64,000 nt of DNA from assembly GCA_040400605.1 (NCBI GenBank), contig JBBAPZ010000006.1, positions 2,908 to 66,907 of the forward strand, written 5' to 3'. This DNA is from Candidatus Sericytochromatia bacterium. GTDB taxonomy: Bacteria > Cyanobacteriota > Sericytochromatia > S15B-MN24 > JAQBPE01. The translations under genes were made by a program, and so were the position numbers. The notes under the pieces were generated by a model, which saw only the letters and a program-made list of their open reading frames with translations, had not been told where the DNA came from and did no database searches. Of this stretch, positions 5,571 to 48,650 are shown in pieces (positions within the stretch are counted from its first letter, which is position 1; each line of letters starts with the position of its first letter).

Positions 5571-5987
5571 TCAAAGCCAACATAACCTCAAACAGACCCA
5601 CACCACCACACTGTTGAAGGCCACCTGATAACCACGATAAGCGCGAGAACCGTAAAGTTCCAATGGACCATCGTCACCGCTTTCTACGGCTTTTTGCAGA
5701 CGTTGCGCCGTAAACACCGATTCAAGCGATCCAAACAACAGTAAAATCGCCCAAGCCAACGCACCGTGATAGTGAACCTGTTTTAAAGGAATCGTTAGCG
5801 CAAACAGATACAACTGCATCAAACCAGCCAAAACCCAAATTTCGCGCAAACGCCCCACGCCCTCATCCATCTGACGGATGAGACGCGCCAACGCTTGGAT
5901 ACGGCCAGTCTCGCCAAACGACCACGCCAATATATTGAACGCTGCCAGGCTCGCGAACAAAAAGTTGATCACACTGAACCAAAACAT
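5571..5987 (-). CDS. hypothetical integral membrane protein
   Basis: 138 aa with four predicted hydrophobic segments and no recognisable motif. Confidence 0.4.
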   Translation of the reverse strand: MFWFSVINFLFASLAAFNILAWSFGETGRIQALARLIRQMDEGVGRLREIWVLAGLMQLYLFALTIPLKQVHYHGALAWAILLLFGSLESVFTAQRLQKAVESGDDGPLELYGSRAYRGYQVAFNSVVVWVCLRLCWL

Positions 5988-6041
5988 GATGCCACCTTAA
6001 AAAACGGACACCTCAATCCAAACATGGCGTGAGTATGCGTG

Positions 6042-6740: not shown

Positions 6741-6764
6741 GCAAGCCTCTTCTCAAAACCGTTG

Positions 6765-18484: not shown

Positions 18485-19933
18485 TTAACGCGGTCCCCTC
18501 AAAGGACCGGTTCCACCGCGCGCTGCACCGGTCTCGCCCGCGCGTTGCGGTGTGTTTGAGGGCAGGGGTTTGGAAGGGGTGCGCGCCGGCGGATTCGCGC
18601 TTTGCACGTTGTTGTTGCGGGCAATTGGCCGCTGCTCAGATGTGCCCGTTTCTGCGCGAAGCACCGATTGTGGTGGAACTGGGGGCACGACTGGTTCCGG
18701 TTCAGGTGCCTCGGGGGGCGCCTCCAGCTGCGCGAGTGCTTCACGCTCCGCCCGCTCCCGGGCCTCGACCGCTTCTTTGCGAGCACGCAAAATCGCATCC
18801 GCAGATTCCTTGAAGTTGCGCATCTCGGCGCGCAGCAGCATCGCCATGCCCTGTTTGTCTTCCGCGGTTGACATGCAAGTGGCGTATTCAATCAACCCCG
18901 AGCGGTACAGGGTCAAGAGTGCCTGATTGGTGCTTTGCATGCCATCATAGCCGCCATTCTTGATTAACTCGTAGAGTTGATCCAATTGCCCTTTGATGAT
19001 CAAGTCGCGCACGGCTGGCGTGTTCACCATGATATCCAAAATTGGTAAACGCCCTTTGCCATCCGAACGCGGCACGAGGCGCTGTGCGATACAACAACGC
19101 AGGGTGTTGGCAATCGATTTGCGGATTGTCTCTTGCTCACTCGGTGGAAACGCATTCACCAAGCGGCTGATTGTCTGAACTGAATCATTGGTGTGCAAGG
19201 TCGATAACACCAAATGCCCCGTTTCAGCGCCTTTGATGGCAAGCTCTATGGTTTCGCGATCCCGCAACTCACCAATCAGAATCACGTTTGGCGCTTGACG
19301 CAACGCGGACTTGAGCGCCCGCGCAAACGAATTGGTGTCTTTGCCAACCTCGCGTTGACTGATGATACAATTTTTGTGCGGATGCACCAATTCGATCGGG
19401 TCTTCGATGCTGACCAGATGTCCGTGAATGGTTTCATTGATAAAGTTGATTACCGCTCCCAGTGTGGTGGACTTGCCTGATCCCGTCGGGCCTGTTACCA
19501 ACACAAGGCCCTGCTTCTCCAACGCAATTTTTTTCAAAACCGGCGGTAATCCAAGTTCATCCGCCGAACGAATATCATTCTGGATAATGCGCAAAACCGC
19601 ACCCACGGTCCCGAGATTCATAAAAATGTTGGCACGAAACCGCGCGAGGCCCGGTACATCGAACGCACAATCCACCTCTTTGTCGACCTTGAATTGTTCT
19701 ACCTGTGCACTGGGCAGCATGGCGAAAAGCATCTGCGGGATGATGCGCGGATCCAAAACATGACGCTCATAACCTGGAACAACCCTCACCTGGCCATCAA
19801 TCACCGCTTTAGGGGGCAAATACGCCTTGAGGTGAATGTCCGCGGCCTGGTGCGCATAAGCAGCCTGTAAAATACCGAGCAGCGGGTTATTCGATGCGGG
19901 GGGCACATTTGGCGCGGTTTGAATGACAGTCAT
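18485..19933 (-). CDS. pilT: type IV pilus retraction ATPase PilT-like, with about 110-aa Glu/Ala/Pro-rich C-terminal extension
   Basis: Walker A GPTGSGKST, Asp box, Walker B and His box (LVLSTLHT) of the PilT/PilU family. Start revised to MTVIQT (ATG 19933, with GGAAGG upstream). The upstream 45 codons of the track ORF look non-coding. Confidence 0.8.
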   Translation of the reverse strand: MTVIQTAPNVPPASNNPLLGILQAAYAHQAADIHLKAYLPPKAVIDGQVRVVPGYERHVLDPRIIPQMLFAMLPSAQVEQFKVDKEVDCAFDVPGLARFRANIFMNLGTVGAVLRIIQNDIRSADELGLPPVLKKIALEKQGLVLVTGPTGSGKSTTLGAVINFINETIHGHLVSIEDPIELVHPHKNCIISQREVGKDTNSFARALKSALRQAPNVILIGELRDRETIELAIKGAETGHLVLSTLHTNDSVQTISRLVNAFPPSEQETIRKSIANTLRCCIAQRLVPRSDGKGRLPILDIMVNTPAVRDLIIKGQLDQLYELIKNGGYDGMQSTNQALLTLYRSGLIEYATCMSTAEDKQGMAMLLRAEMRNFKESADAILRARKEAVEARERAEREALAQLEAPPEAPEPEPVVPPVPPQSVLRAETGTSEQRPIARNNNVQSANPPARTPSKPLPSNTPQRAGETGAARGGTGPLRGPR

Positions 19934-19958
19934 TACAATTGCCTTCCGGTCATCATCA

Positions 19959-20471
19959 CTACTGGCCCAAATCCTCTCGTACAGCCTCCGGAAGCGCCAA
20001 GCCCGCAAGTACGGTCGTGAGTTTCCTGACATCCAGATGATGCTCGTCATAACCGATGAGCGTTTCACTCACGTTCAAAATCGGCTCACGGTAGAAAGTT
20101 GCACCATGCGCCAAAAACTCGTGCATCAAACGCACACGAAACAACCCGCGCTTCATTGTGATCGGATTCGAGATCTCGTAATACGCTCCCCGGACCTCGG
20201 CCGCACAAGTCTGACATTTGTAAAAAACCTGAGGATACGTGACGGCATAATACGGGGTTTTCTCTTCGATGACCCGACTCAACGCCAACTGCTGGGCATC
20301 CGCATAAGCTGCACGCATCTCTTCCGCATTGTTGTAATCAAAGCCACCTTCTGAATCCATGGCCACTGACAACTGCTCCAAGAGCCTGTCTGACAACTGG
20401 GGCATCGCCTGAAGGTATGCACGTAAGGCTTCCACAATGAAACGCTCCTCATCTGGAACTCTCGCCTGCAA
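19959..20471 (-). CDS. hypothetical protein
   Basis: 170-aa ORF immediately upstream of pilT on the same strand. No recognisable motif beyond a CQTC pair. Confidence 0.45.
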   Translation of the reverse strand: MQARVPDEERFIVEALRAYLQAMPQLSDRLLEQLSVAMDSEGGFDYNNAEEMRAAYADAQQLALSRVIEEKTPYYAVTYPQVFYKCQTCAAEVRGAYYEISNPITMKRGLFRVRLMHEFLAHGATFYREPILNVSETLIGYDEHHLDVRKLTTVLAGLALPEAVREDLGQ

Positions 20472-35167: not shown

Positions 35168-36472
35168 TCAGTTTGCATTCAAGGCCGTGAGCAGTTCATC
35201 CCACTGTGTTTCTTTCGCGAAGGCCGTGTCGCGATAGATGGGATCCACCTTGGCCGCCAAGGGCAGATAAATCGACAACCCGCGTGTCACACCCCCTTGT
35301 TCATTGGCTGAGCGAGACAGAATGATTGCGCCGCCTTTGTTGAAAAGCGCCTGATTGACCCGTTGACAGGCTGCACGAACCCGCGCGTCACTGACGCGAA
35401 GCTGCAATTGACGGATCACTTCGTTGAGGTCACGGTGGTCAAAATCACTTTTATCCGGCCCCGAGACGTGGAAGGCGCGAACCGCCTCAAGACTCCGCCG
35501 AATGACTGATCGCTGCTCTGGAATGATCCGAAGCAAACTGTCAGCCAATTCATTGACTGCTTGCGTGAGCGGTGCAACCCGAGCCATATCAATGGCTGAA
35601 ACAGTAAACAAGGCCTTTTGTGAACCGAGACGCAACGCACGAAGCACCAAACCCCGCGACAATTCTTGTGCATCCGGGGTCCGCTCGCGCGTCACCGTCG
35701 CCAACGATGCCGGATAATTCATCCCCAGTGCATACGACGAGTCTTCACTTCCCACCATCACGGCTGCCGTGTCGCGCAACTCATGCGCAACTTCCAGAGA
35801 CGACATCAAACACGCATCAAAGGTCAAAAGGTCCAGCTTGCGTCCACCAGAACCATCAAGCAAGGCTGAGCGCAATTGCGGCAACCGCATGATGCCGCCG
35901 CCCCGATCATCCTGGGCGATACCGTAATAGCCACCCCCATGATTGTTGATATCAAACCACCGAAACGCTGAAGGATACTTTCCAAAAGCCCATTTCATCG
36001 ACTGAGACAAGGTCTTTGGGCGACTCGTGTCAAGCTCCTGACTTGCAGCCGGTGCATAAGGACTGCTCACACGCTCCTCCGCTGTGTCCCGACGCATGTA
36101 GTACCTGCGCGTGTTCCGTGGACCGATATCATCCGTGAATGCCAAGACATTGACTGCCCGTGTTGACCCGACATGCTCCAAAATATTGAGGTGCATCGGC
36201 AAAGTCAAACCCAAATTGTTATCCAATGCCTTGTAAGTCAGGAACGTCACCCGTTTTGACTGTGGCGACAACGGCAATTGCCTCACACGTGTCCCATTTT
36301 CATCGACGAGCACGGTGTCTTTGCTGATTTGGGCCTCAATTTCGGGATAATCATCGACAACCGCGCGACTCGCCCACTGTCCACCACTTGACTGCAGGAC
36401 ACCGATCGGCGCCTGACACGACCATAACAGCGTTCCCGTCAACACGGACAACCAGGGTTTCAAACGATTCAA
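35168..36472 (-). CDS. clostripain-related (peptidase C11 family) cysteine peptidase, secreted
   Basis: Signal peptide, His block (DINNHGGGYYG) and LTFDACLMSS catalytic Cys block typical of C11. Confidence 0.6.
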   Translation of the reverse strand: MNRLKPWLSVLTGTLLWSCQAPIGVLQSSGGQWASRAVVDDYPEIEAQISKDTVLVDENGTRVRQLPLSPQSKRVTFLTYKALDNNLGLTLPMHLNILEHVGSTRAVNVLAFTDDIGPRNTRRYYMRRDTAEERVSSPYAPAASQELDTSRPKTLSQSMKWAFGKYPSAFRWFDINNHGGGYYGIAQDDRGGGIMRLPQLRSALLDGSGGRKLDLLTFDACLMSSLEVAHELRDTAAVMVGSEDSSYALGMNYPASLATVTRERTPDAQELSRGLVLRALRLGSQKALFTVSAIDMARVAPLTQAVNELADSLLRIIPEQRSVIRRSLEAVRAFHVSGPDKSDFDHRDLNEVIRQLQLRVSDARVRAACQRVNQALFNKGGAIILSRSANEQGGVTRGLSIYLPLAAKVDPIYRDTAFAKETQWDELLTALNAN

Positions 36473-36570
36473 CGGAACCTCCCGCTTCGGATTGTCACGC
36501 TACACGGAAATTAAGTTTATGAATACATTAAGCCTTTCTTATAATCGTAAAAAAAACAGGAGATGTCAAC

Positions 36571-36598
36571 AAAAAAATAACGGGCCACAGGGCCCGTT
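36571..36598 (-). terminator. intrinsic terminator downstream of clpS
   Basis: The minus strand reads AACGGGCC-ctgt-GGCCCGTT, an 8-bp stem followed by ATTTTTTTT. Confidence 0.6.
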
Positions 36599-36621
36599 GT
36601 CGATAAGGTACGTTATCAATC

Positions 36622-36903
36622 TCAGAGGTCTTCTTCGATCGAACTGGTGAGACCAAAGCTTTGCAGGCGTTCACAGTACATCTCGGCGTGTTCGAGCGGA
36701 CACGCCAGCACGATGGCAACGCCTTGTTCATGAGCTTCTAACGTGACCGCATGCGCTTGCGACTGGCTGATGCCTGGAATGGCCTTGTGAAGGGAGCCGA
36801 TGACGTACTGAAAATCGTGATAATTATCATTGTGCAACAGCACCTTGTACGGGTGATGGGATCTGGTTCCTGATTGCGGGCGTTCAAGTGTCTGGGCGTT
36901 CAA
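36622..36903 (-). CDS. clpS: ATP-dependent Clp protease adaptor ClpS
   Basis: YKVLLHNDNYHDFQYVIGSLHKAIPGISQSQAHAVTLEAHEQGVAIV is the ClpS core. Confidence 0.85.
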   Translation of the reverse strand: MNAQTLERPQSGTRSHHPYKVLLHNDNYHDFQYVIGSLHKAIPGISQSQAHAVTLEAHEQGVAIVLACPLEHAEMYCERLQSFGLTSSIEEDL

Positions 36904-37002
36904 GGTATACTCCTTTGCGTGATCGGGCTGCCTGACTCGTCACTCGGGCCGTTGGCGCGATCGCACTGGCGTTGGAACCGGACGGGTGCCGGGTAAGGAG
37001 TC

Positions 37003-37524
37003 GTGGTGAGAACATCCCGTATATACCCAATCTTTGGTTGCCTGTATCGTATCTCGACCACAACTGCTGTGCTGACGATTGGCTCCTGTGGCATTTTGGG
37101 GATGAATCCGAACGTGCAAACGTGGTGGCAACCTGATGCCGAGCACTACTATGTGGAAGGGGCCCTGAGCCAAGGCGATGCTGCACGCCCCACTGTTGGC
37201 TATGTGCAAGGCGAAGGCGACAACCCGGACCCCGGGAGTTTTGTGCGCATTGGTCAGCCGGGCGCCGGCATCAGCAGTGCCGGTATTCACGTTCCGTCAG
37301 GGTTGGTTATGGTATCGCAGAATAAACGCTTTGGCATCACGTTTCATTCAAACCGTCGGTTTGCGATTATTCGCCTGTTTGCTTGGGATGATTTCCGTGC
37401 CAATCGTGTACGCGATCTCGATGAACCCATCGCCGGAATCTGGGAAATCAAGAAAGAGGATCAACGTGGGTGGCATTTCAATGCGCCAGCGTGGAACCAA
37501 TTCAACTTTGCTTTTCACAAGTGA
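37003..37524 (+). CDS. hypothetical protein
   Basis: 173-aa ORF, the only one in this 650-bp gap. No motif recognised and the start is uncertain. Confidence 0.3.
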   Translation: MVRTSRIYPIFGCLYRISTTTAVLTIGSCGILGMNPNVQTWWQPDAEHYYVEGALSQGDAARPTVGYVQGEGDNPDPGSFVRIGQPGAGISSAGIHVPSGLVMVSQNKRFGITFHSNRRFAIIRLFAWDDFRANRVRDLDEPIAGIWEIKKEDQRGWHFNAPAWNQFNFAFHK

Positions 37525-37557
37525 CAACTACACTCAGATGACACATCGACAATAAAG

Positions 37558-37580
37558 AGGGCTACCAAAACTGGTAGCCC
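37558..37580 (-). terminator. hairpin GGGCTACC-aaaact-GGTAGCCC between the hypothetical gene and rplS, probable rplS terminator
   Basis: Perfect 8-bp stem. On the minus strand it is followed by TCTTTATTG, 75 nt after the rplS stop. Confidence 0.45.
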
Positions 37581-37654
37581 AAAGTCCCTTTAAGATGACA
37601 CAACCATCAGCGACCGTCGCCACGCGATACCTCAACGGCGACATCACATCAGAT

Positions 37655-38032
37655 TCACTTCGCTGGACGCGCGCTCGTCTTCTCCTTGATACGGGTAGCC
37701 TTGCCCTGCAAACCACGCAGATAATACAGCTTCGCACGGCGCACGTCACCCTGACGGAGAACATCAATCCGATCAACACGCGGAGAGTGCAACGGGAAAG
37801 TCCGCTCAACAGCCACACCTTGGAAGGTCCGACGAACCGTCACACTGCGCGATATCCCTGCACCCTGCAATTTGATGACGGTTCCTTCATAAGCCTGAAT
37901 GCGCTCCTTGCCACCTTCACGAATCTTGGCAAATACCTTGACAGTATCACCCGGTGCAATGCGCGGGACCTCAGCCTTCAGGTGCGGCTTTTCAACAGCA
38001 GCGAGAATTTCACGAGGGTTAACCTTGGACAT
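37655..38032 (-). CDS. rplS: 50S ribosomal protein L19
   Basis: Full-length match to the L19 pattern ([20 protein letters not shown]...RRAKLYYLR). Confidence 0.95.
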
Positions 38033-38169
38033 ATTCAGCGAACTCCTAATGACGCATCAAGCGCCTCACGATCGCCCGCACCGCTCGGCGGACAGGCACA
38101 CTCTGATTCCTGTACGGATATTAACACGCTTGGCACCTTGGGGTCCAGCCACCTTGGCGTTCCCAAGTG

Positions 38170-38748
38170 TCACGCGAGTCGTGCCAAAACCAGTTTGGAT
38201 ACACATCGCAAAGTGTCAATTACCCCGACACCATCTTTTGCAACGGCTTGAAACGAAGGACATTTTCGAGGGTTCAGCGTGGTTTCCAATTCATTTAGCG
38301 TGCTGATGTCGCTAAGGTCCCTTTTGTTGAATTGCATCACAAGGGGCAGTTCATTGATGTTGAACCCATAATCGGCGACATTGGCCGTCAAATCATGCAA
38401 CGATAAAACGTTTTCCGCCATTTTCGATCGTTGCGAGTCTGCAACAAACACGACGCCATCCACGCCACTCAAGATCAGCTTGCGACTGGCCAGATATTCC
38501 TGTTGCCCAGGGACGGTGTAAAGGGCGAAACGAGTTTTGAAGCCGGCGACATGACCGAGGTTAATCGATAAAAAGTCAAAGTAAAGGGTTCGCTCGGTGG
38601 GCGTGGCCAAAGAGACCATGTCACCGCGCACGTGGGGTGGCAACTGTTTGAAAATAAACTCCAGATTGGTTGTTTTGCCCCCCAGGCCCGTTCCGTAGTA
38701 CACCAGTTTGCAACTGACTTCACGGCTGGCGTAGTTGATGATCGCCAC
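38170..38748 (-). CDS. mglA: Ras-like small GTPase MglA
   Basis: CKLVYYGTGLGGKTTNL P-loop, TVPGQ switch II, and NKRD specificity motif. The whole sequence is MglA-like. Confidence 0.85.
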   Translation of the reverse strand: MAIINYASREVSCKLVYYGTGLGGKTTNLEFIFKQLPPHVRGDMVSLATPTERTLYFDFLSINLGHVAGFKTRFALYTVPGQQEYLASRKLILSGVDGVVFVADSQRSKMAENVLSLHDLTANVADYGFNINELPLVMQFNKRDLSDISTLNELETTLNPRKCPSFQAVAKDGVGVIDTLRCVSKLVLARLA

Positions 38749-38768
38749 GATGAACTCCTTTCGCCCCC

Positions 38769-39245
38769 CTAAAAGAGGTTATCGATTCCTTGATTGGTTG
38801 GGTTGAATGGGGGCTTGGTCTCGGTGTATAGCGCCTCCATCTGCATATTGAATTTGGGAAGGGCTTGCATCGTTTTAAATTTGACCAGGCCGACAGTGAC
38901 ATTGGAACCGAAAACGAGCGCCAGGGAGTCAGTTGTGTCAAGCGCCACAACAAAAATGGATTCGTTATGGCCCTGTTGGTAAAGTGACCGAAAGTGCTTT
39001 TCACCGAGCAACCGAGCCAAGGCGCGGCTGCTCGCAAAAGAACCGCTGATCAACGCGGCGAGCGAGACGGTATCCAGAGTCCCGGTTTGCCCCTGAGCCG
39101 TGATCAATTGACCACTTTTCTCAATGAGAATTACAGCCCGCGCGCCCGTGTCACGCTGTAAATGCGCACAGATGGCATTCAGGCTGTTGATGCCCGCTTC
39201 GGTGAGGATCAACGTACCGCCAGGTTTGACCATGGAATTGTTCAA
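38769..39245 (-). CDS. mglB: Roadblock/LC7 domain protein, MglB-like GAP
   Basis: 158-aa Roadblock-fold pattern immediately upstream of mglA, separated by 20 bp. Confidence 0.75.
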   Translation of the reverse strand: MNNSMVKPGGTLILTEAGINSLNAICAHLQRDTGARAVILIEKSGQLITAQGQTGTLDTVSLAALISGSFASSRALARLLGEKHFRSLYQQGHNESIFVVALDTTDSLALVFGSNVTVGLVKFKTMQALPKFNMQMEALYTETKPPFNPTNQGIDNLF

Positions 39246-39263
39246 CCTCCTAATGTTTGCGAA

Positions 39264-40148
39264 TCAGGGCGTCGGTACGGTTTGATTCAAGTCACGCCAC
39301 AAATCGTGTTGCATGGGTACAGTGGCATACAAGGTGTCTTCCAAAATACGCTCCAGGAATTTTTCACCATAAACCTTGATGACAAAACCGCGCACCTCCT
39401 GCCATAAGGGTTGATAAGCGCCCATCAGGCGACTCGTTTGCCAGTTGTCAGGCAAATCGTCGATGACGTGACCCTGCCGCAGCCTTAAGGCAAGATGACG
39501 CGCCCTCGCAGTGTCATTGAACAAACGTTCCAGGGCGTCAACCATTTTTACGCCACTGATGGCCGCGAATTGACTCGCCACAGTTGTAATGACATCCGTG
39601 AACAAGCGCCTCAGAAACTCTTCGTTGGCGCAGTCAACCACGATGCTGCCCGCCTCATGCAAGGTTGTGACCTCCTCAAGGACCACAACCTCGCCGCGAC
39701 CTAACTTTAACACCAGTTCACCAAACACGATTCCGTCGCCCAGCGCCTCTTTCCACGCATCACTCAAAGTACCGCCATCGCGCTGGGGGGTTATCCTCGA
39801 GCGGGTTGAAAAGTAATCAGGCAAGCGAGCCAACAAATCATTCTGCTTCATCAACAAGGCGCTCCCCAAATCGGCTACCTGCTTTAAACCGATAGACTCG
39901 CCTCTTGGCATTGACTCGTGACTTTCGTTAAATTCAAAGATTCCCGTGGTCCACAGAGACAATTGGGCACAGGCCTCCCTGTTGCGAAGGTTGGCATGTG
40001 CCGCTCCGACAATGGTTCCGGCCTGCAACGTGACCGTGCCGCGCTTTCCTTGCCGCTTAAGGGTCAACTCCCCTGACGCGCTCGCCAATGTCAGGATCTG
40101 TAGCAAATCCAACAAGCGAAAGTCCTGCAAGCTACCTTCTTTGATCAT
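39264..40148 (-). CDS. PATAN (DUF4388) domain protein
   Basis: N-terminus GSLQDFRLLDLLQILTLASASGELTL matches the DUF4388/PATAN signature. Lies 18 bp upstream of mglB. Confidence 0.65.
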   Translation of the reverse strand: MIKEGSLQDFRLLDLLQILTLASASGELTLKRQGKRGTVTLQAGTIVGAAHANLRNREACAQLSLWTTGIFEFNESHESMPRGESIGLKQVADLGSALLMKQNDLLARLPDYFSTRSRITPQRDGGTLSDAWKEALGDGIVFGELVLKLGRGEVVVLEEVTTLHEAGSIVVDCANEEFLRRLFTDVITTVASQFAAISGVKMVDALERLFNDTARARHLALRLRQGHVIDDLPDNWQTSRLMGAYQPLWQEVRGFVIKVYGEKFLERILEDTLYATVPMQHDLWRDLNQTVPTP

Positions 40149-40182
40149 GGTTCAATCGATTCCTCGGCACATGTAAGGGGTC

Positions 40183-41157
40183 TCACTGCGCAATCAGCAC
40201 ATATTCCGTGATGCCTTCGTCGGTTCCTTCCTGTCGAAATGGACAAGATACCAGTCGACGCACCGGACGAAATCGTTCCACCAACGCTTTGAAGGCCTTG
40301 ATGCGAATGGGTTCGGCGCTGTTATAGCCAATAGCCCAGACGGGGAGATGCGTGACGCGTGCAAAAAATCGGTTGAGGGCGTGTTCATATTGCATTGGAC
40401 CCAGTGACTCACCCAGTGCAGGTGCGCCATTCGCTGTTTCGTGCGATGGAGGTAAGGCAGGCGTGTGGTGTCCACGGACCCAACTTTCGTGCATCCAGAT
40501 GTGAGCGATACGGTCCTGAGATCCCAGGTGCGTCGGTGGATAACACAGTAACACGTCTGCATCGACACCGGGAGCCTGCTCGTTGGCGTCACCGAAGATT
40601 GCGTGGTTATCCTGACCATTGTCACATACCCAACTGTTTAACCTTTGCACGTAATGCGCAAACAGTTGTTGGGGACGGTGTTGTTGCGGCGCAGCATTTG
40701 GGGATTGATTCAGCCAATGTTTAAGCACCAGGCCAACCGCACCGATGCCGATTGCCTGACTGATTGGATGGCTGGGGGTTTGTATCAAATGATGATGCCA
40801 TAGTCCAAGCCATACGATTGCCTCCGGCAGGAGGCCGCATTCCGACCACCCTCGGAATCGGTTCACGATGACAGGATCCTTGACAATGACTTGCCACGCC
40901 TGCCATTCATCGTGCGTCACGCGGTGGTGACCGTTGGCGATGTAGGCTTGTGCCATCGCATGATGGGAAAGTATCTGGTCACCGCTCACCACCCGCTTTC
41001 CTTCACGCTTGAAGTGCAATCCAAGCTTTGCGTCGCCCGCAAAGGGCTCATAGGCGCTCTCGAACGCTACGCCTGACAGCGCGCGTGAGAACAAACTCGG
41101 CATGATGCGCTTCTGACGTGCAAGGGGGACACGCGTCGTTGTTTGATCTTGGGTCAT
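40183..41157 (-). CDS. hypothetical protein with weak, degenerate resemblance to D12-class (Dam-like) adenine methyltransferase motifs
   Basis: YEPFAGDAKL sits at the position of Dam motif I (EPFxGxG). CYPPT sits roughly 170 aa later, where DPPY would be. Both are degenerate. Confidence 0.35.
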   Translation of the reverse strand: MTQDQTTTRVPLARQKRIMPSLFSRALSGVAFESAYEPFAGDAKLGLHFKREGKRVVSGDQILSHHAMAQAYIANGHHRVTHDEWQAWQVIVKDPVIVNRFRGWSECGLLPEAIVWLGLWHHHLIQTPSHPISQAIGIGAVGLVLKHWLNQSPNAAPQQHRPQQLFAHYVQRLNSWVCDNGQDNHAIFGDANEQAPGVDADVLLCYPPTHLGSQDRIAHIWMHESWVRGHHTPALPPSHETANGAPALGESLGPMQYEHALNRFFARVTHLPVWAIGYNSAEPIRIKAFKALVERFRPVRRLVSCPFRQEGTDEGITEYVLIAQ

Positions 41158-41187
41158 CGCTAGAAACCTTCATACGATCCGTACACG

Positions 41188-41808
41188 TCAAAAGTCCAGC
41201 GAACGGGGCCACGAAATGGCAGTTCCTCGGTCACCGGCATCAATTTCCACAACCCATACGTAACGGCCTCGCGGTACTTTCCCTGAAAAGATCGCACTCG
41301 AGTCACGGGTATGTTCACCCATCCACTTGAATTGATTGGCTCCGGTGATCCGAATGCGATACTGTTTGGCCTGCGCGTGGGTTGACCAGTGAAACGGCAC
41401 CACAGTTTGCTCATCGACCACCAAGGCGACACCGTTTTCTGGGTACAGTAACTGGTTGAACGCCAAATCGAATGCGGGGATATCGACACCCGAACCGACG
41501 CCGTCCGTAATCACAGGCGATCGCCACTGGGCGATCTCGTTTGGGACCTGTCGTGGTCCCGGTGCTTGACTCTGAAAGTACACCTGAACCGGCTGCTGTT
41601 GAACGTTGCGAAAAAAATAACGTCCATTGCCGTCGGTCGTCGTTTTTGCCGATACATTGCCGACCAGTGTCACCCGACGATTCACGGCTGGCTCCCCATT
41701 GTACAACAAGGTGCCACTCACCACGCCTGGCACGTTGACCGATTGGCAACCCGACAAGGCCTGAAAGACCATCACGCCAAGTGAGAACCACGCCAGGTGG
41801 GGCAGCAT
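41188..41808 (-). CDS. lipoprotein with CarboxypepD_reg-like domain
   Basis: Signal peptide ending in ALSGCQS. GTLLYNGEPAVNRRVTLVGNVSAKTTTDGNGRYFF is a CarboxypepD_reg block. Confidence 0.5.
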   Translation of the reverse strand: MLPHLAWFSLGVMVFQALSGCQSVNVPGVVSGTLLYNGEPAVNRRVTLVGNVSAKTTTDGNGRYFFRNVQQQPVQVYFQSQAPGPRQVPNEIAQWRSPVITDGVGSGVDIPAFDLAFNQLLYPENGVALVVDEQTVVPFHWSTHAQAKQYRIRITGANQFKWMGEHTRDSSAIFSGKVPRGRYVWVVEIDAGDRGTAISWPRSLDF

Positions 41809-41811
41809 CGG

Positions 41812-43359
41812 TTAAAAATCAACCTTTGAACGAACGACAAAGGTTTCAGAGGTGATGGGGTCTGACGGTTTTGGAATAAAAATACTCTCAATAAGCTTGG
41901 CCTGCACGTTGTATTCCGCAATCAGATTTGGAACCCAGGGATTATCAAGCGGAACCTGAACCGAAAAACCGGCGTTGCGGCCCAATGCCTGACCACCGGG
42001 ACCTTCTGTCACGCGACCATCTGACCGCCGGGGCGCCAAGACCGTGTAGTGATCCGTGAATGCCATCAACGTTCGGGGTATGCCCCAAGGTCCCACCAGG
42101 GCACGACCGGGCAACTTGACGATCGCACCATAGCTGATGACCCCCACGCTTTGATTGGGATCACTGTTGTACATGACCGTTGCGCTTGCCCCGAAATCTT
42201 TTGAGCCGCCACGCACACCCCCACCGAACGACGTCAACGCCAGATTGGTCAAATTGGCTTGCAACGTGCCACCCCAGGGGGCTTCTTGACCAAAATCCAG
42301 CACGACGGCCGCGTTATCCGTGGTTTTGACACGCGGATCGCTGCTGTTGAACGCTTGCGTGATGGCCTTGTGGTCGGTTTCATAGCCGCCTGTGAGTTTG
42401 ACGGGGCCAATTTTGCCCTCCATTTGCCAGATCACGATGTTTGAGTTGACACCACCCCGCACAGTCAACGCTCCCAACGTCGTTTCCCCAGTCAAACCGA
42501 CATCGCTGCCAACTCGCAGTGCCGATGCTGCGGGCTTTAGGCCGCCCACACCCACTATAAAACTGTCGTAAAAATTCAGACCCGTTTCCGGCCCGAAATC
42601 AACCAGCCAAAGCGGGAATCGACCGACATTGATGACCGTTGAACCAATTGTTGACGTCACCCTGGCTTCGCGAAAGGTCACGTTGGTATCCGCTGGCGTT
42701 TTGCCCAGCGCCCCAGCCAGGACAGAAGGAATGTCACCGGATCCCGAGGCTTTAATGGCACTGCCAATGCTGGCATTGAATGCTGTGTTATCGCTGATGA
42801 CCCCGCGAACGGTCAGGTTCATCAAGGAGCCAATATAGGGCGCCGTCCTATCTTTGCCAACATCAAGCAATTCGTCGGCCACCAGCGAACGGATGTCACC
42901 TTTGATTTGAGCGGAGCGCTCCAAAGTGGTCTTGAGGGTCTGGTTGCTCTTTTCGACCTCAGCCATCCGGGATGCGAGGCTGTCAAGCTCTTTTTTAAAC
43001 TCACCCTTCAAGCGCTCAATCAACACCTTGTCAGATGCACTCGCCCCGCGCACCGCAACCGGCGTGCCAGCTCCCTCGCGTCCCTCCTTGACCCCATCCA
43101 GACGCCGAAGCAGGTTATACAAAGAGGCTGCGAGCTCATAGCGACTGACAGCCTTGGCGCCGCGGAATGTGTTATCCGGGAAACCGCTCATCACCCCATA
43201 CCGCTCGATCAGACCCTCAACCGCTTGATAGGCCCAATGCTCAGGCGCCAAATCGTGCATCTCGGCTGCCGCCGGTGCAGCCCAGGCAGGACGAATCTGG
43301 CCACACAAGCACAAGGCTGCGACAAAGGTGATACCAAAATGGTTGACAGGACGTGACAT
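41812..43359 (-). CDS. SLH-domain outer-membrane porin-like protein (SLH + coiled coil + beta-barrel)
   Basis: Signal peptide, SLH motif (HWAYQAVEGLIERYGVMSGFPDNTFRGAKAVSRYELA), coiled-coil segment, and C-terminal alternating beta-strand region ending in F. Confidence 0.75.
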   Translation of the reverse strand: MSRPVNHFGITFVAALCLCGQIRPAWAAPAAAEMHDLAPEHWAYQAVEGLIERYGVMSGFPDNTFRGAKAVSRYELAASLYNLLRRLDGVKEGREGAGTPVAVRGASASDKVLIERLKGEFKKELDSLASRMAEVEKSNQTLKTTLERSAQIKGDIRSLVADELLDVGKDRTAPYIGSLMNLTVRGVISDNTAFNASIGSAIKASGSGDIPSVLAGALGKTPADTNVTFREARVTSTIGSTVINVGRFPLWLVDFGPETGLNFYDSFIVGVGGLKPAASALRVGSDVGLTGETTLGALTVRGGVNSNIVIWQMEGKIGPVKLTGGYETDHKAITQAFNSSDPRVKTTDNAAVVLDFGQEAPWGGTLQANLTNLALTSFGGGVRGGSKDFGASATVMYNSDPNQSVGVISYGAIVKLPGRALVGPWGIPRTLMAFTDHYTVLAPRRSDGRVTEGPGGQALGRNAGFSVQVPLDNPWVPNLIAEYNVQAKLIESIFIPKPSDPITSETFVVRSKVDF

Positions 43360-43451
43360 CAGACTCCTCGGGTCATAGGGACAACTTCACGGTGCTTCAC
43401 AAGACGAGACCACACCGGCGGGCATACCCCCGCCAAAACCGTCTTGGTTGC

Positions 43452-44360
43452 TTACCTCCTGCGACGAAAACGCGATAATTCAAAACGACCCTCCAGCCTC
43501 GCCGAACGACGCTCCCTGGCGGAGCCCTTCGTTTCACCCGTTTTAGCACGGGCATCCTTGGCGGACACATCACCCTCCGCCGGATCATCCCGCAACGAGC
43601 GGAGTTTCGCAAAAATGAAGCGAATGATGCGCCCACGCAGGCCCTCTGTTATACCAACGAAGTTCACCGCAACGAAACCCGGCGTCAGCCCCTTGCGTAA
43701 AAGCACCATGCCTTTCAGGTCAAGCCTATCCCCAGGAACATTCACCCGAAAATGGTACACACGTGGGCGCAACGGCTTGGGCAGTGCAAGCAGCATCCCG
43801 CCACCCGACAAATTCACCGTTTGCCCCACGACACTCGGCTTGCGTGCGAGGCTGTCATCATAGACCTCAACACCCACCTTGACCATCAATCGAAAATATT
43901 GCCGCTTCTCGTCCGACACCTGACTGGCCGATTCGGTCGCAACCGATGCCGGCAGGGCGTCAACCGCCGCGTTCGAAACGGATTCAGTGTCAGTCGTCGG
44001 TTGACCCTGCACAGCCTCACTCACGCTGGACTGGCCTTCCGCAACGACTGCCTGCACAGCAGCCGTCACGGGCACGGACCTCGCCTCGGGCGCCACTTCA
44101 ATTGCTGGCTGCCTGTACGGTACTGCCACACGCAATTCGGTGAAAGTGGCGTGCGCGCCCAAGTCAAAGTCCGCTGTCACGTCAGCACTGACTGGCACAG
44201 AGGCCCTCACGCCAACGAAGCTGCTTGCTGGCAGCTTCAGGGGGATGGTCAGTTCGAAGTGAGCCTCAGCGACGGCTGTAACCGTCGCTGAGATTCGGAG
44301 ACCATCAAAGGCGATTTCCAATTCTTGTCCTGGGAAGATCGTATCGCCCAAAACACGCAC
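43452..44360 (-). CDS. PilZ domain protein (c-di-GMP receptor-like) with unknown N-terminal domain and Arg/Lys-rich tail
   Basis: RQYFRL (RxxxR) and NLSGGG (D/NxSxxG) PilZ motifs in the C-terminal half. Confidence 0.7.
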   Translation of the reverse strand: MRVLGDTIFPGQELEIAFDGLRISATVTAVAEAHFELTIPLKLPASSFVGVRASVPVSADVTADFDLGAHATFTELRVAVPYRQPAIEVAPEARSVPVTAAVQAVVAEGQSSVSEAVQGQPTTDTESVSNAAVDALPASVATESASQVSDEKRQYFRLMVKVGVEVYDDSLARKPSVVGQTVNLSGGGMLLALPKPLRPRVYHFRVNVPGDRLDLKGMVLLRKGLTPGFVAVNFVGITEGLRGRIIRFIFAKLRSLRDDPAEGDVSAKDARAKTGETKGSARERRSARLEGRFELSRFRRRR

Positions 44361-44372
44361 CTCAAGTCGTGG

Positions 44373-45383
44373 TCAGGTGACCTTTGTTGGCAAGATCAAC
44401 CATTGGTTGGGGTAAACCAGATTTTTGCTGCCCAGTGACGCCCGGTTCAATGCGGCCAACTCTCTCCACCGCGATGCTTTACCCAGATGTTTCGCTGCTA
44501 TCGCATACAGATTGTCGCCCGCCACAACACGGTACATCCTGTCTACCCGCTTGGCTTTCAAATTATGCGTGGTCCCGACCGAAACCTGCACAGAGTCGGA
44601 CGTGATCGCCAAAGCAGCCGGGGCATCTGGCAAAACCAAGGTTTGGCCAACCTTCAAAAGCAACCCGTTCTTCAATCGGTCGGTGTTAGCTTCGGCGAGC
44701 TCACGCCACCGCGAGCCCTTACCAAGCTGTCTGCGCGCTATCCCGTAAAGCGTATCGCCGGCTGCCACCCGGTAGAATCGCACGCTCAGCGCATTACCAT
44801 TCGTCACGCGCAGTGGCCTGGACACCGGCTCGCGCACCCCGCTTGCAGCAGGTGACACGTTGGCGACACGCTGTACCGACGCCTCGACGGCCGCAGGCGA
44901 CACCTTAGCGACACGTTGCACCGGCACTTCGGTGGCCTTCGCCTTTGAGAAACGAACGGACGGGGTACGCGTGGTGTCAACCTCGGGCACTACCGGCTGA
45001 TCCATCAAAACCGCCATCGACCGAGTGAAGGGGAAGGTCCGCGTGCCCGGAACAACGACAATCGGCGGAAATGCCTGCTCAGAGGCGGATGCCAGCATCA
45101 CGCCGGGCTTGGTGACAGTCTGGGCGTGCGCGACAAACGGGGACAGCGTGGTAGGCAAGGTAATAAACCCGATCGCAGCCGCACGGGTGACACCTGCAAA
45201 CTGCTGGCGGTGAGTTGCGGCAGAACCATTCGCCAAGCCAGTAGGAAACAGTTCACCGAGCAACTTGAGCTCACCCCTTGTCACTCTGACCCTCCCACTT
45301 TCCGCAACACGGTGCAAAAGCGCCAGTTCCGTGTTGATGTCATCTGTTGTCTGACCAGCAATCATACGTCCTGAAGCGCCCAT
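44373..45383 (-). CDS. secreted protein with two LysM domains
   Basis: YRVAAGDTLYGIARRQLGKGSRWRELAEAN and YRVVAGDNLYAIAAKHLGKASRWRELAALN are LysM repeats. Internal tandem PVQRVAKVSPAAVEASVQRVANVSPAA. Confidence 0.7.
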   Translation of the reverse strand: MGASGRMIAGQTTDDINTELALLHRVAESGRVRVTRGELKLLGELFPTGLANGSAATHRQQFAGVTRAAAIGFITLPTTLSPFVAHAQTVTKPGVMLASASEQAFPPIVVVPGTRTFPFTRSMAVLMDQPVVPEVDTTRTPSVRFSKAKATEVPVQRVAKVSPAAVEASVQRVANVSPAASGVREPVSRPLRVTNGNALSVRFYRVAAGDTLYGIARRQLGKGSRWRELAEANTDRLKNGLLLKVGQTLVLPDAPAALAITSDSVQVSVGTTHNLKAKRVDRMYRVVAGDNLYAIAAKHLGKASRWRELAALNRASLGSKNLVYPNQWLILPTKVT

Positions 45384-45763
45384 GTCGTCAATTTACTCCT
45401 TCGCCGCTCGTTACCGAAGTCCACCTGATTGTCTGGGCTGCGCGGGACGCCACACGCGCAATCCCGAACCGACCAGGCCCCTATGGGGACACACTGCTAC
45501 GGCAACCGCCGTGAGAACAATTAAAACGGGCCGCTTACCGATATGCTGTTACGCGCGTCACCAATCTCAACACGAGCGCGCCATTAACCGCCGCGGTCTC
45601 TCCCAGGTTGGCCGTTTGACATCAATCCGAGCCTTGGCGTCGGCTGATCCGTGGACGTAACAGGCAATCCATGCGAAGATGCCTGAGGTCAATTCAGCCG
45701 GTGTCGGGTGTGCCCGGGACGGATCCGATGCCCGGTTTCAACCTGCCTAATGGGCCAACATTG

Positions 45764-45838
45764 TGACGGAGGCGGCCTTGAAAACGATGGCAGCCTGGGC
45801 CCTTTAAACAGTCGTGGCGCTCACCCTTTGGGTATTGG
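45764..45838 (+). repeat. decayed tandem duplicate of the nuoA 5' end (about 80% identical to 45865-45943, period 101 bp)
   Basis: Alignment of TGACGGAGGCGGCCTTGAAAACGATGGCAGCCTGGGCCCTTTAA... with TGACAGAGGCGGTATTAAAAACGATGGCAGGCCTGGCCCTGTTG... The upstream copy carries a 6-codon mini-ORF MAAWAL-stop. Confidence 0.5.
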
Positions 45839-45863
45839 TCAATCTGGAGAGTTGAAAAACATC

Positions 45864-46355
45864 ATGACAGAGGCGGTATTAAAAACGATGGCAGGCCTGG
45901 CCCTGTTGACCGTTGTGGCGCTCGGCACCGTCTGGGTGTTGACGTTTGGCGTATTGCCTGCACTCCCCGGATTGCTGGGCGCGATCGCATCTTCCTCCTC
46001 GGAAACGTTTTTTGCGCTGTTTATCACCTTGCTGCTTGCAATCGTCCTGCCCTTCGCGATGATGGGATTGTCAGCGGTTCTTGGCCCCTACGCGCCCAAT
46101 GAACGCAAGCTGGAACCGTACGAGTCAGGAATTCGGCACCCGGTGGGCGGGGCGCGAGAACGGTTTTCGATCAAATTTTACCTCGTTGCGATTCTATTCA
46201 TTGTGTTCGATGTGGAAGCGGTGTTCCTGTTCCCGTGGGCAGTGAATTTTAGAGAACTTGGTGTTTACGGACTGGTTGAAATGTTTGTGTTTATTGGGGT
46301 TTTATTTGCAGGTTTCGTGTACGTGGTTAAGAAAGGGGCGTTGAAATGGGATTAA
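45864..46355 (+). CDS. nuoA: NADH-quinone oxidoreductase subunit A
   Basis: Three TM helices and a C-terminal KLEPYESG...[22 protein letters not shown] NuoA signature. Start taken at ATG 45864; the upstream part of the track ORF is the duplicated leader. Confidence 0.8.
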
Positions 46356-46837
46356 TGAAGGACGTCATTCTGACCAGCAGAGATGCCGTGTTGAGTTGGG
46401 GTCGCGAGAATTCATTGTGGCCGATTCCGTTTGGAACTGCCTGTTGCGCCATCGAGTTTATGAGCACCGTTTCTTCAGCGTACGATATCAGCCGCTTCGG
46501 CGCTGAAGTCGTGCGGTTTTCGCCGCGCCAGGCAGATTTGATGATTGTGGCGGGCACAGTGAATTATAAGCAGGCGCCGATCCTGAAACGCGTCTACGAA
46601 CAGATGCCAGACCCCAAGTGGGTCATTTCGATGGGCGTGTGTGCTAGCTCAGGTGGTTTTTACGACAATTATGCAGTCGTACAGGGAATTGATGAAATCA
46701 TCCCGGTCGATGTGTACATCGGCGGTTGTCCTCCGAGGCCTGAAGCGGTTTTGGATGCAATTATGAAGTTGCAGGGCAAGTTGCGCTTGCCTTCAGCGAG
46801 CGATGTTGCCAAGTTGTCTGAGCAACGGTTGGCATAG
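46346..46837 (+). CDS. nuoB: NADH-quinone oxidoreductase subunit B
   Basis: [15 protein letters not shown]...GVCASSGG...GGCPPRPE N2 cluster motifs. Confidence 0.95.
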
Positions 46838-46848
46838 GGCGAGGGGGC

Positions 46849-47409
46849 TTGGGGATGGGTGTGTCAGCGAATGCGGTGTTGGCGAATGTCCAACGACTTT
46901 ATCCGAATTTTTTTACTTTAAGTCCGACCCAGGAAGCAGTTCTGGTTGTGCCTCTGGCCAATCTCCTGGAGACGCTGACGAAACTGAGGCAGGATCCGGA
47001 TCTGAATTTCAATTTCTTGATGGACTTGACCATCATCGACTACCTGACCCATCCGGTGCCGCGCAAAACACGTTTCGAAGTCGTATATCAGCTGTTTGCC
47101 TTGGAGTCGGCAGCGCGACTGCGGGTGAAGGCAGCCGTCCAGCAAGCTGAATCGATCCAGAGCGTTACTGGGCTTTGGGCCGCGGCAGATTGGGCCGAGC
47201 GCGAGGCTTGGGAGATGTACGGGCTCAAATTTGACGGCCACACCAATTTGCGTCGGTTGCTAACGCACAAGGATTTCGTGGGTTATCCGTTGCGCAAGGA
47301 CTATCCGGCCAAGAAGCGCCAGCCCTTGAATGACTCGGACACGCTACTGGAGGAGATGGAGCAACGCCTGGTGTTTAAGGGGCTTAAAACGGTGGAGGTC
47401 GAGGGATGA
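46849..47409 (+). CDS. nuoC: NADH-quinone oxidoreductase subunit C
   Basis: 30-kDa subunit pattern (ERE...YGLKFDGHTNLRRLL). Confidence 0.85.
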   Translation: MGMGVSANAVLANVQRLYPNFFTLSPTQEAVLVVPLANLLETLTKLRQDPDLNFNFLMDLTIIDYLTHPVPRKTRFEVVYQLFALESAARLRVKAAVQQAESIQSVTGLWAAADWAEREAWEMYGLKFDGHTNLRRLLTHKDFVGYPLRKDYPAKKRQPLNDSDTLLEEMEQRLVFKGLKTVEVEG

Positions 47410-48650
47410 TGCGGGTACCTGGGATCGAAGACAAATCGCCTGTGCTCGCGGAAGCGGTTGTGCCGGAGTTTTACCAAGACCTGCACACTGATTTGATGTT
47501 TTTAAACGTCGGCCCTTCCCATCCTGCCAGCCACGGGACGCTGCGTACCTTTGTCGCCTTGGATGGTGAAACGATTGCTGCGGCGGTGACTGAGATAGGC
47601 TATCTGCACCGGGGTTTTGAAAAAACCTGTGAACTGAGAACATACAATCAATGCATCCCTTACACAGACCGTCTTAACTATTGCTCGGCGATTCTCAACA
47701 ACATCGGATTCGCCAAGGCGGCTGAACGTCTGATGGGCGTTGAGATCACCGATCGTTGCAAGTTTGTGCGCGTGATTGTTGGTGAAATGATGCGGGTTGT
47801 TGATCACCTCATCTGTATTGGAACCAACTTGGTAGACATAGGCGCCTTGTCCAATTTTTGGTTCTTGTACAACAAGCGTGAGCAGGTGTACACGATCCTG
47901 GAGCGCCTGACTGGTGCACGTTTAACCAACAGTTTTACGCGAATCGGTGGATTGGCACGCGATCTTTATGACGGCTTCGAGGCGGATACCCTGGCAGTAC
48001 TTGCGGACATCGAGAAGGCAGCGGTGAATGTTCAGTCGTTAGTCGCCAAGAACCGAATCTTTGTTGACCGCACGCAGGGTATTTGTATATTGACGCCCGA
48101 ACGCGCCATATCCTATGGCTTTACCGGCCCCAACCTGAGGGCGACCGGAGTCCCGTTGGATTTGCGCAAAACACAGCCCTATTATCATTATGATGCTTTC
48201 GATTTTGACATCGCGGTGGGTTCAAAAGGCGATACGTACGATCGCATTATGGTTCGTTTCATTGAGATTGAGCAGTCGATACGGATCATCCGTCAGGCCA
48301 TAAAGATGTTGCCAGGGGGCCCGATCAATGTCGATGACAAGCGCGTGACACTGCCCGGCAAGGCGGACACTTATCAAAATATCGAGGGGTTGATCAATCA
48401 CTTCAAATTGATTTTCGAAGGAGTCAAGGCCCCTGTTGGCGAAGTTTACGATGCAACTGAAGCGGCCAATGGCGAGCTTGGATTTTATATTGTTTCGGAT
48501 GGCTCCGGTTATCCGTATAAGGTCAAGTGTCGACCGCCTTGTTTTTATGCTTTCAATGCGTTTCATGAAATGGTCGAAGGGCATATGATTGCTGATCTCG
48601 TAGCGACGCTCGGCTCGATCAATATCATCGCAGGCGAGTTGGAACGTTAG
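47406..48650 (+). CDS. nuoD: NADH-quinone oxidoreductase subunit D
   Basis: 49-kDa subunit blocks (MFLNVGPSHPASHG, RIGGLA). Confidence 0.95.
   Translation: MMRVPGIEDKSPVLAEAVVPEFYQDLHTDLMFLNVGPSHPASHGTLRTFVALDGETIAAAVTEIGYLHRGFEKTCELRTYNQCIPYTDRLNYCSAILNNIGFAKAAERLMGVEITDRCKFVRVIVGEMMRVVDHLICIGTNLVDIGALSNFWFLYNKREQVYTILERLTGARLTNSFTRIGGLARDLYDGFEADTLAVLADIEKAAVNVQSLVAKNRIFVDRTQGICILTPERAISYGFTGPNLRATGVPLDLRKTQPYYHYDAFDFDIAVGSKGDTYDRIMVRFIEIEQSIRIIRQAIKMLPGGPINVDDKRVTLPGKADTYQNIEGLINHFKLIFEGVKAPVGEVYDATEAANGELGFYIVSDGSGYPYKVKCRPPCFYAFNAFHEMVEGHMIADLVATLGSINIIAGELER

Follow-up and report, generated by a model that had tools for sequence, protein, structure and literature searches.

Background

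Which genes has a non-photosynthetic relative of the cyanobacteria fixed beside its Ras-like polarity switch, and do they act together with it? The question is raised by a cluster of eight genes at positions 38170-45383 of a 64,000-nucleotide stretch of contig JBBAPZ010000006.1 (assembly GCA_040400605.1, positions 2,908 to 66,907; the whole stretch is hereafter called the window), which encodes the predicted GTPase MglA and its partner MglB together with a PATAN/DUF4388 protein, a Dam-like protein, a lipoprotein, and proteins carrying SLH, PilZ and LysM domains. MglA/MglB is a model for front-rear polarity, its mechanism known mostly from Myxococcus and in part from Thermus and Bdellovibrio. 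The switch with a group 1 MglA has been described by Wuichet and Sogaard-Andersen (PMC4316618).

The host genome most likely belongs to the Sericytochromatia, a class within the Cyanobacteriota/Melainabacteria group and the non-photosynthetic sister class of cyanobacteria. The closest named MglA homologues (64-69% identity) come from 'Candidatus Sericytochromatia' metagenome-assembled genomes, 'Cyanobacteria bacterium RYN_339' and 'UBA8530', and three metagenome assemblies contain near-identical contigs. Here we report that, by its gene order and sequence relationships, the cluster is a lineage-specific, vertically conserved Sericytochromatia block built around a Ras-like polarity switch.

Results

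The cluster and its polarity switch

A first-pass annotation, made from the letters of the window alone, had described eight co-directional genes with gaps of 3-90 bp and had proposed that they form a polarity or twitching module responsive to cyclic di-GMP (c-di-GMP) and wired to envelope components. In an open reading frame (ORF) listing of 36000-48000 the eight ORFs were recovered at the same coordinates, all on the minus strand; the gaps, from the LysM to the MglA gene, measure 12, 92, 3, 30, 34, 18-30 and 20 bp, so that the range becomes 3-92 bp. The MglA, MglB, PATAN, PilZ, LysM and SLH assignments were upheld by Pfam or structure-profile matches. From the first gene to the last, the cluster comprises:

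44373-45383, minus strand: LysM protein, 336 aa, first gene of the cluster
43452-44360, minus strand: PilZ-domain protein, 302 aa (Pfam PilZ)
41812-43359, minus strand: predicted SLH-domain outer-membrane protein, 515 aa (Pfam SLH)
41188-41808, minus strand: predicted lipoprotein, 206 aa, with lipobox LSGC and a CarboxypepD_reg-like Ig-fold domain
40183-41157, minus strand: degenerate Dam-like (D12-class) methyltransferase-fold protein, here called DamL, 324 aa, identified by its fold and by its orthologues' PF02086 matches
39264-40148, minus strand: stand-alone PATAN/DUF4388 protein, 294 aa (PF14332)
38769-39245, minus strand: MglB, a Roadblock/LC7 protein of 154-158 aa depending on the start codon (alternative gene-caller start at 39233)
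38170-38748, minus strand: MglA, a Ras-like GTPase of 192 aa, identified by a profile match to solved MglA

Pfam returns only a borderline Arf match for MglA. Over its full length (residues 1-191), a profile built from this protein and 18 relatives matches the solved MglA of both Myxococcus xanthus (6hjh, E 2e-89; 6h17 and 5ymx similar) and Thermus thermophilus (3t12, E 3e-84). The P-loop GTGLGGKTT, TERTL with R53, YTVPGQ with Q82, and NKRD are invariant in all 19 sequences; we take R53 to be the intrinsic arginine finger and Q82 the catalytic glutamine, numbered relative to M. xanthus. The protein is 60-71% identical to proteins named MglA by their sources. It appears to be a group 1 Ras-like polarity GTPase, and a polarity role is predicted for it here.

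MglB matches Robl_LC7 (PF03259) at 43.2 bits and the solved M. xanthus MglB (6h5b_B) at E 6.5e-24; against the NCBIfam MglB model it scores 56.9 bits (E 2.6e-15), under the 200-bit cut-off. Its gene lies directly upstream of mglA across the 20-bp gap, and we predict it to be the Roadblock/LC7 GTPase-activating protein of the pair. The likeness to the M. xanthus and T. thermophilus switch lies in full-length MglA similarity, the P-loop, R53, the TVPGQ motif with Q82, and mglB-mglA adjacency. The difference is that here the switch sits in a larger conserved cluster with a putative pseudo-methyltransferase, PATAN, PilZ and envelope proteins, in a Sericytochromatia host. The locus showed no RomR/RomX, Frz, SgmX or Agl/Glt gene.

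Gene order in relatives

Loci of relatives were anchored on MglA homologues, their contigs read, and the readings confirmed by hidden Markov model (HMM) scans; the MglA alignment shows two sequence types. The order LysM-PilZ-(2xGAF)-SLH-lipoprotein-DamL-PATAN-MglB-MglA, with the 2xGAF gene in brackets since only some loci have it, is found in five other Sericytochromatia lineages, six with the window, which makes the association real at the level of a bacterial class and not a peculiarity of one genome. In the window's own clade (clade A), every sufficiently long locus keeps the full order:

L083, MglA 94% identical: no difference from the window
L085, MglA 71%: no difference from the window
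L087/L088 (GCA_035285325.1), MglA 67%: no difference from the window
L092 (RYN_339), MglA 69%: GAF gene present
L094 (GCA_046291135.1), MglA 65%: GAF gene present; a kinase gene, not rplS, after mglA
L104 (GCA_036703175.1): GAF gene present; kinase-TPR gene after mglA

With the close relative L083 set aside, identities to the window in clade A fall from 79-84% for RplS (where present) through about 70% for MglB and about 50% for the SLH protein to 38-44% for the lipoprotein, DamL and PATAN proteins, 32-43% for LysM and 22-42% for PilZ. That this order survives in independent lineages, with LysM and PilZ identities down at 22-43%, is more than chance would give.

A second clade (clade B: L079, L089/L091, L096/L097 and L102/L103) keeps only DamL-PATAN-MglB-MglA, followed by a gene for a Ser/Thr kinase with TPR repeats. 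The genes upstream are unrelated (a helicase, an NHL-repeat protein and hypotheticals). In L102 the genes of the cluster overlap by 4 bp. Since only these four genes are kept, the invariant core consists of the pseudo-Dam, PATAN, MglB and MglA genes, and the PilZ/LysM and porin/lipoprotein pairs appear to be clade-specific additions. The first-pass annotation had linked the polarity module to PilZ, LysM and SLH genes; a link of mglBA to these and to the lipoprotein gene is found in one clade only, and the core that the annotation missed includes the Dam-like gene as a member, not a passenger.

Downstream of mglA in the window, 137 bp lead to rplS (37655-38032) and then clpS, both on the same strand as the cluster, and synteny with L085 and L087 stops right after clpS. 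Because this flank varies among relatives (rplS-clpS or a kinase gene), the block is not merely part of a long frozen region. The GC content of the cluster (52-59%) is unremarkable against the rest of the window.

Two further genes belong to the locus in relatives. The 2xGAF gene lies between the PilZ and SLH genes in L092 (3982-5262), L094 (3717-5030) and L104 (1448-2731). In every clade B locus and in three of clade A the kinase-TPR gene directly follows mglA, at these positions:

L089: 10596-12542
L096: 10588-12504
L102: 13001-14896
L095 (same MglA protein as L094): 5118-7094
L104: 8385-9701

Neither gene has an orthologue anywhere in the 64-kb window, and the window's locus appears to have lost both, present as they are in most relatives. 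TPR proteins are MglA effectors in other bacteria; the kinase-TPR protein may be an ancestral output component.

For background we used the loci listed by an MglA genome scan, mostly from Gemmatimonadota, Myxococcota and Obscuribacterales, with one truncated Sericytochromatia locus. Among the matches listed, 78 MglA loci from other phyla (Gemmatimonadota, Myxococcota, Nitrospirota, Obscuribacterales and others) have no PilZ, LysM, SLH, lipoprotein or DamL gene within flanks of up to 10 kb per side; most have mglB alone.

In five Obscuribacterales/Melainabacteria loci (L003, L015, L016, L019 and L020), tblastn and HMMs found an MglA without an adjacent mglB, in contrast to most Myxococcota and Nitrospirota and many Gemmatimonadota loci. 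In L003 and L016 the opposite strand carries a kinase gene 4-8 kb downstream of mglA.

The core partners: PATAN and DamL

The PATAN protein matches PF14332 at 50.6 bits (cut-off 25) over residues 4-85, and its N-terminal motif MIxEGSLQDFxLxDLLQIL is conserved in 10 orthologues. A conserved helical region follows, carrying QFAxISGVKM; the C-terminal 190 aa found no Pfam match and, by profile search, no sequence relative in the PDB. Pfam gave no Response_reg (receiver) match. The missing receiver domain and the conserved C-terminal helical region together indicate that this is not a PatA-type response regulator, unlike the Synechocystis proteins of that type, which carry a receiver.

PATAN genes near mglA and mglB are reported in PMC4316618, with reference to Makarova et al. 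2006, and the likeness to these neighbourhoods is that a DUF4388/PATAN gene stands directly upstream of mglB-mglA. In Synechocystis, PATAN domains bind PilB1, the ATPase of pilus extension, and PilC, the platform protein (bioRxiv 10.1101/2021.06.11.447907), and in M. xanthus PATAN proteins were among the candidates considered alongside SopA (PMC11580455). The partners seen here, DamL and the kinase-TPR gene, have no description in that Synechocystis preprint or in PMC4316618.

The DamL of the window has no Pfam or NCBIfam match; 7 of 12 orthologues match PF02086 (D12) weakly (best E 2e-7), and one orthologue is annotated by its source as a DNA adenine methylase. An AlphaFold model made from ten family members (pLDDT 82.4, pTM 0.83) predicts a class I S-adenosylmethionine (SAM)-dependent methyltransferase fold with a helical insertion at about residues 82-175. 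Foldseek ranked Escherichia coli Dam first for this model (E 6.6e-5), at low TM-scores of 0.45/0.56.

The window's clade keeps motif I (EPFAGDA) and the acidic residue that follows beta2 (GD); the second clade has lost motif I. Motif IV reads CYPPT in the former clade and YVPP, YLPG or YVA in the latter; no near relative has the catalytic (D/N/S)PP(Y/F/W), and DPPY occurs only in the distant members P0158 and P0175. Among 1.84 billion representative proteins this small family numbers 16 at E<=1e-30 and 58 at E<=1e-10.

DamL shares with E. coli Dam and other D12 enzymes the predicted class I fold, the best Foldseek match, PF02086 as the best family of its orthologues, and a partly kept motif I. 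It differs in having YPPT for DPPY, in its low TM-scores and helical insertion, and in belonging to a small family fixed beside PATAN-MglB-MglA. Fold, orthologue matches and motif IV bear out the first-pass description of a degenerate Dam-like protein, and DamL is, on present motifs and model, best described as a putative catalytically dead pseudo-methyltransferase.

The PilZ and LysM proteins of clade A

The PilZ protein matches PF07238 at 33.3 bits (cut-off 22.5) over residues 151-251, as do all six orthologues (best E 1.6e-11). It carries both ligand motifs, RQYFR (RxxxR) and NLSGGG (NxSxxG), and R153, R157, N183, S185 and G188 are invariant in the six orthologues, whose overall identity to it is 29-33%; the closest relative is 84% identical. 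That the ligand contacts stay fixed while the protein as a whole evolves fast speaks for a functional c-di-GMP receptor.

Ahead of the PilZ domain stand a conserved N-terminal domain of about 85 aa with an FDLG motif and a low-complexity linker; behind it is a basic C-terminal tail. The N-terminal domain has no Pfam match and, by profile search, no sequence relative in the PDB. Aligned by hhalign with the protein's own PilZ domain, it showed no similarity (probability 0.1).

In the window and its closest relative the C-terminus (43452-43500) ends ...RLEGRFELSRFRRRR, with RFRRRR in the window; distant orthologues end instead in RREKYFxPPKIRYW, and the window's tail is a lineage-specific replacement. 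A metagenome scan with the PilZ alignment returned one near-identical contig and three other short contigs. Of the latter, the high-GC contig L099 holds no other cluster gene, and L100 and L101 were examined by HMM only.

The first-pass annotation had drawn an analogy to Myxococcus PlpA, which is a loose one. What PlpA and PixA share with the protein of the window is a PilZ protein tied to an MglA system, here by gene position. PixA, which combines PilZ with a receiver, binds c-di-GMP and is needed for unipolar MglA in Myxococcus (PMC8316039). Compared by architecture, the PilZ protein of the window has no receiver but an unrelated N-terminal domain, and its gene lies in the same cluster as mglBA, whereas the Myxococcus PilZ genes are not known to belong to the mglBA locus.

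The LysM protein (Pfam LysM, 69.4 bits) has two C-terminal, peptidoglycan-binding LysM domains and two conserved motifs, an N-terminal helix-like DDIxxELxLL and FPF(T/S)RPM. A second, larger LysM protein of 463 aa with three to four LysM domains is encoded at 14761-16152 on the minus strand, beside a gene for a PolX-type polymerase (16664-18379).

The SLH protein and the lipoprotein

The SLH protein matches Pfam SLH (PF00395) at 28.9 bits, and its N-terminus alone matches NCBIfam por_somb (77.5 bits, E 8e-22, under the 100-bit cut-off). In a profile search residues 14-149 match the solved SLH proteins 8bys/8bym and Deinococcus SlpA (7zgx) at E about 1e-15. The protein reads as a signal peptide (...RPAWA/AP, judged by eye), an SLH domain, a coiled-coil stalk and a C-terminal region of about 350 aa ending in an invariant F515. 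From this architecture, the signal peptide and the invariant terminal phenylalanine, the C-terminal region is presumably a beta-barrel.

With the SLH tethers and channels 8bys/8bym, SlpA (7zgx) and Som-type porins the protein shares an N-terminal SLH domain and stalk, a signal peptide and the C-terminal phenylalanine; it differs in that no barrel family matches its last 350 or so residues and its por_somb score is below the cut-off. We know of no SLH tether protein with a conserved placement between a PilZ gene and an MglAB module. The lipoprotein matches CarboxypepD_reg (PF13620) at 28.5 bits, under the cut-off of 32.3; its gene begins 3 bp after the SLH gene and always stands behind it in relatives.

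Other genes and features of the window

The first-pass annotation had also called on two distant genes in support of a c-di-GMP-responsive module. One, at 2264-3232 on the minus strand, encodes a predicted HD-GYP-type phosphodiesterase with an intact HHERIDGRGYP and about 120 N-terminal aa in which no receiver-domain match was found. The other, at 18485-20068 on the minus strand, encodes a PilT/PilU-family ATPase (TIGR01420, 427 bits, residues 65-406 of a 527-aa ORF) that probably starts downstream of the first start codon; the 'unusual tail' ascribed to it is present as a C-terminal extension of about 120 residues without a family match.

Both genes are 18-35 kb distant, separated from the cluster by unrelated genes, among them those for urocanase, PolX and UDP-glucose pyrophosphorylase, so that they were rejected as evidence for a link to it. 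They indicate only a capacity of the genome for c-di-GMP turnover and type IVa pili.

Between rplS and clpS an ORF of 172-173 aa lies on the plus strand (37003-37524); it is 52-92% identical in relatives and has no Pfam or NCBIfam match. The whole window contains no tRNA gene and no Rfam family at the gathering threshold, c-di-GMP riboswitches included.

Discussion

A possible route from c-di-GMP to polarity

Gene adjacency by itself makes plausible a c-di-GMP-gated polarity or twitching system wired to the envelope. The reading we prefer, with our confidence evenly poised, is that c-di-GMP acts through the joint work of the cluster's parts to position or gate a machine spanning the envelope, probably type IVa pili. 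MglA-GTP would mark one pole or site, and MglB at the opposite site would switch MglA off. Coupling of the switch to the motor of the type IVa pilus would fall to the PATAN protein, in the manner of the Synechocystis PATAN domains, with the dead Dam-like protein as a structural or regulatory partner of PATAN and MglAB. The PilZ protein would feed the c-di-GMP level into the system, possibly via a wall-bound LysM protein.

Co-transcription of all eight genes is plausible; transcription would probably start in the divergent nuoA-lysM intergenic region, with a second start before the porin gene. Co-transcription, physical interactions among the products and a motility output are what we would infer beyond the observed identities, motifs, modelled fold and gene order.

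A bolder form of this proposal, which we consider unlikely, is that DamL is an obligate, previously unrecognised component of the switch, and that in clade A the switch is coupled via PilZ and LysM to the SLH tether. DamL could then be a scaffold, a nucleotide-exchange or recruitment factor replacing RomR/RomX, or a SAM-sensing pseudo-enzyme, and the whole would amount to a trans-envelope, second-messenger-gated polarity landmark.

Several observations weigh against cooperation of the eight products around a pilus machine. No pilus assembly gene lies in or next to the cluster. The only hydrophobic segment of the LysM protein (residues 68-87, proline-containing) is so weak, with a best Kyte-Doolittle window of 1.26, that neither a membrane helix nor a signal peptide can be called and export is not demonstrable from sequence. 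Residues from about 150 to 515 of the SLH protein, where the barrel would lie, have no family or PDB sequence match. Promoter- and terminator-like consensus sequences are as frequent as in shuffled sequence, so that scans for them are uninformative. To these are added the four-gene loci of clade B and the features of gene order and spacing taken up next.

One unit or neighbours by descent

The strongest alternative is that three independent units, LysM-PilZ(-GAF), SLH-lipoprotein and DamL-PATAN-MglB-MglA, have merely been kept adjacent by slow rearrangement, which we regard as somewhat improbable. The first would be a module for c-di-GMP and peptidoglycan, the second a housekeeping outer-membrane tether or porin with its lipoprotein, and the third the switch. 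Upstream of the LysM gene, about 320-480 bp of non-coding DNA separate the cluster from a divergent nuoA-N operon, and in all five clade A loci whose sequence extends to that point this unrelated operon stands beside the cluster; some of the shared order may be plain collinearity or a low rate of rearrangement. The second clade has DamL-PATAN-MglB-MglA alone.

Insertions in relatives fall exactly at the borders of the units, the GAF gene after PilZ and, in L095, a DUF3137 gene on the opposite strand (689-1645) between lipoprotein and DamL. SLH outer-membrane proteins of such architecture are moreover general envelope tethers and channels in other diderms, in keeping with the PDB matches found here.

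The spacing of the genes points the same way. Within the cluster the widest gap invariably precedes the SLH gene, measuring 92 bp in the window and 65-296 bp in relatives, and a GGGTA[TC] hexamer stands upstream of the SLH gene in 6 of 7 lineages, at 49-117 nt, or 210 nt in L087, where the start is uncertain. Its background density is 0.2-0.4 per kb, and it is missing in the closest relative, L083. The signals concerned are:

43424-43429, minus strand: GGGTAT hexamer within the 92 bp between the PilZ and SLH genes, 65-70 nt ahead of the SLH start codon
L085 5260, L087 5200, L092 5274, L094 5066, L104 2748: GGGTA[TC] in relatives
37559-37580, minus strand: intrinsic-terminator-like hairpin, GGGCTACCA...TGGTAGCCC plus a T-rich tail, downstream of rplS

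The hexamer may be an internal promoter, an operator or another regulatory element, and its recurrence together with the largest gap suggests an independent promoter for the SLH gene. Taken with the GAF and DUF3137 insertions, it suggests three sub-modules, [LysM-PilZ(-GAF)], [SLH-lipoprotein] and [DamL-PATAN-MglB-MglA(-kinase)], and some subdivision of the cluster is likely. A GC-rich hairpin in the same gap was rejected as an attenuator, as it folds like its shuffles (z 0.29) and is not kept in L083.

Against mere neighbourhood stands the order itself, which outlasts divergence to 22-43% identity in the LysM and PilZ proteins, and to 38-42% in DamL and PATAN, while the downstream flank changes. 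The lipoprotein/DamL junction, a border between two of the proposed units, is 0 bp in L087 and a 1-bp overlap in L092, of the type seen in co-translated operon genes; the DamL/PATAN junction in L092 is a 4-bp overlap. The scan detected no intrinsic terminator within the cluster, the sole convincing one on its strand between 37400 and 46000 being the hairpin at 37580-37559, after rplS. As to whether internal signals split the co-directional cluster proposed in the first pass, the proposal stands as regards terminators and is weakened by the candidate promoter motif before the SLH gene.

Pilus motility or envelope growth

Another possibility, distinctly unlikely in our view, is that the cluster is one functional unit whose output is envelope growth or morphogenesis, not pilus motility, with MglAB positioning wall-associated proteins. 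The process served might be wall synthesis at poles or in zones, tethering of the outer membrane, the shaping of the cell, or transitions resembling germination. Wall or outer-membrane proteins account for three or four of the eight products (LysM, SLH, lipoprotein, possible barrel), and the cluster holds no pilus gene. Yet motility machines are what MglA/MglB acts on in Myxococcus and Thermus, a PilT-family ATPase is encoded in the genome, and the second clade is without envelope genes at the locus. Clusters of MglB in M. xanthus reportedly survey the growth of peptidoglycan as spores germinate (bioRxiv 10.1101/818641), but PATAN has so far been tied experimentally to the pilus motor (10.1101/2021.06.11.447907).

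Least probable by far is that DamL is an ordinary active orphan DNA methyltransferase merely sitting in the operon: although orthologues match PF02086, one carries a DNA adenine methylase annotation, and the window's clade still has motif I and the acidic residue after beta2, motif IV is degenerate in all near relatives, motif I is lost in the second clade, the gene always adjoins and sometimes overlaps the PATAN gene in both clades, and the family is tiny.

Conclusions

An incomplete search of the literature returned no paper linking MglA to Sericytochromatia, Melainabacteria or Vampirovibrio, no fixed pseudo-Dam partner or motif-intact PilZ gene linked to mglBA, and no LysM and SLH genes in the same conserved block as mglBA. 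The PATAN-mglBA neighbourhood was already known; the putative pseudo-methyltransferase partner and the PilZ gene within the locus are the main points of interest.

In an uncultured sister lineage of the cyanobacteria a predicted group 1 MglA/MglB pair is consistently accompanied by a stand-alone PATAN protein and a probable pseudo-methyltransferase, and in one clade a motif-intact PilZ protein and predicted wall and outer-membrane proteins are tied to the same switch as well. Should these parts not cooperate, the cluster is an ordinary conserved neighbourhood. Should they cooperate, it would be a compact, genetically defined route from c-di-GMP to a polarity switch and would add a new family of accessory factors. 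Since PATAN domains control phototaxis polarity in true cyanobacteria, the cluster bears on the evolution of pilus polarity control in the cyanobacterial lineage.

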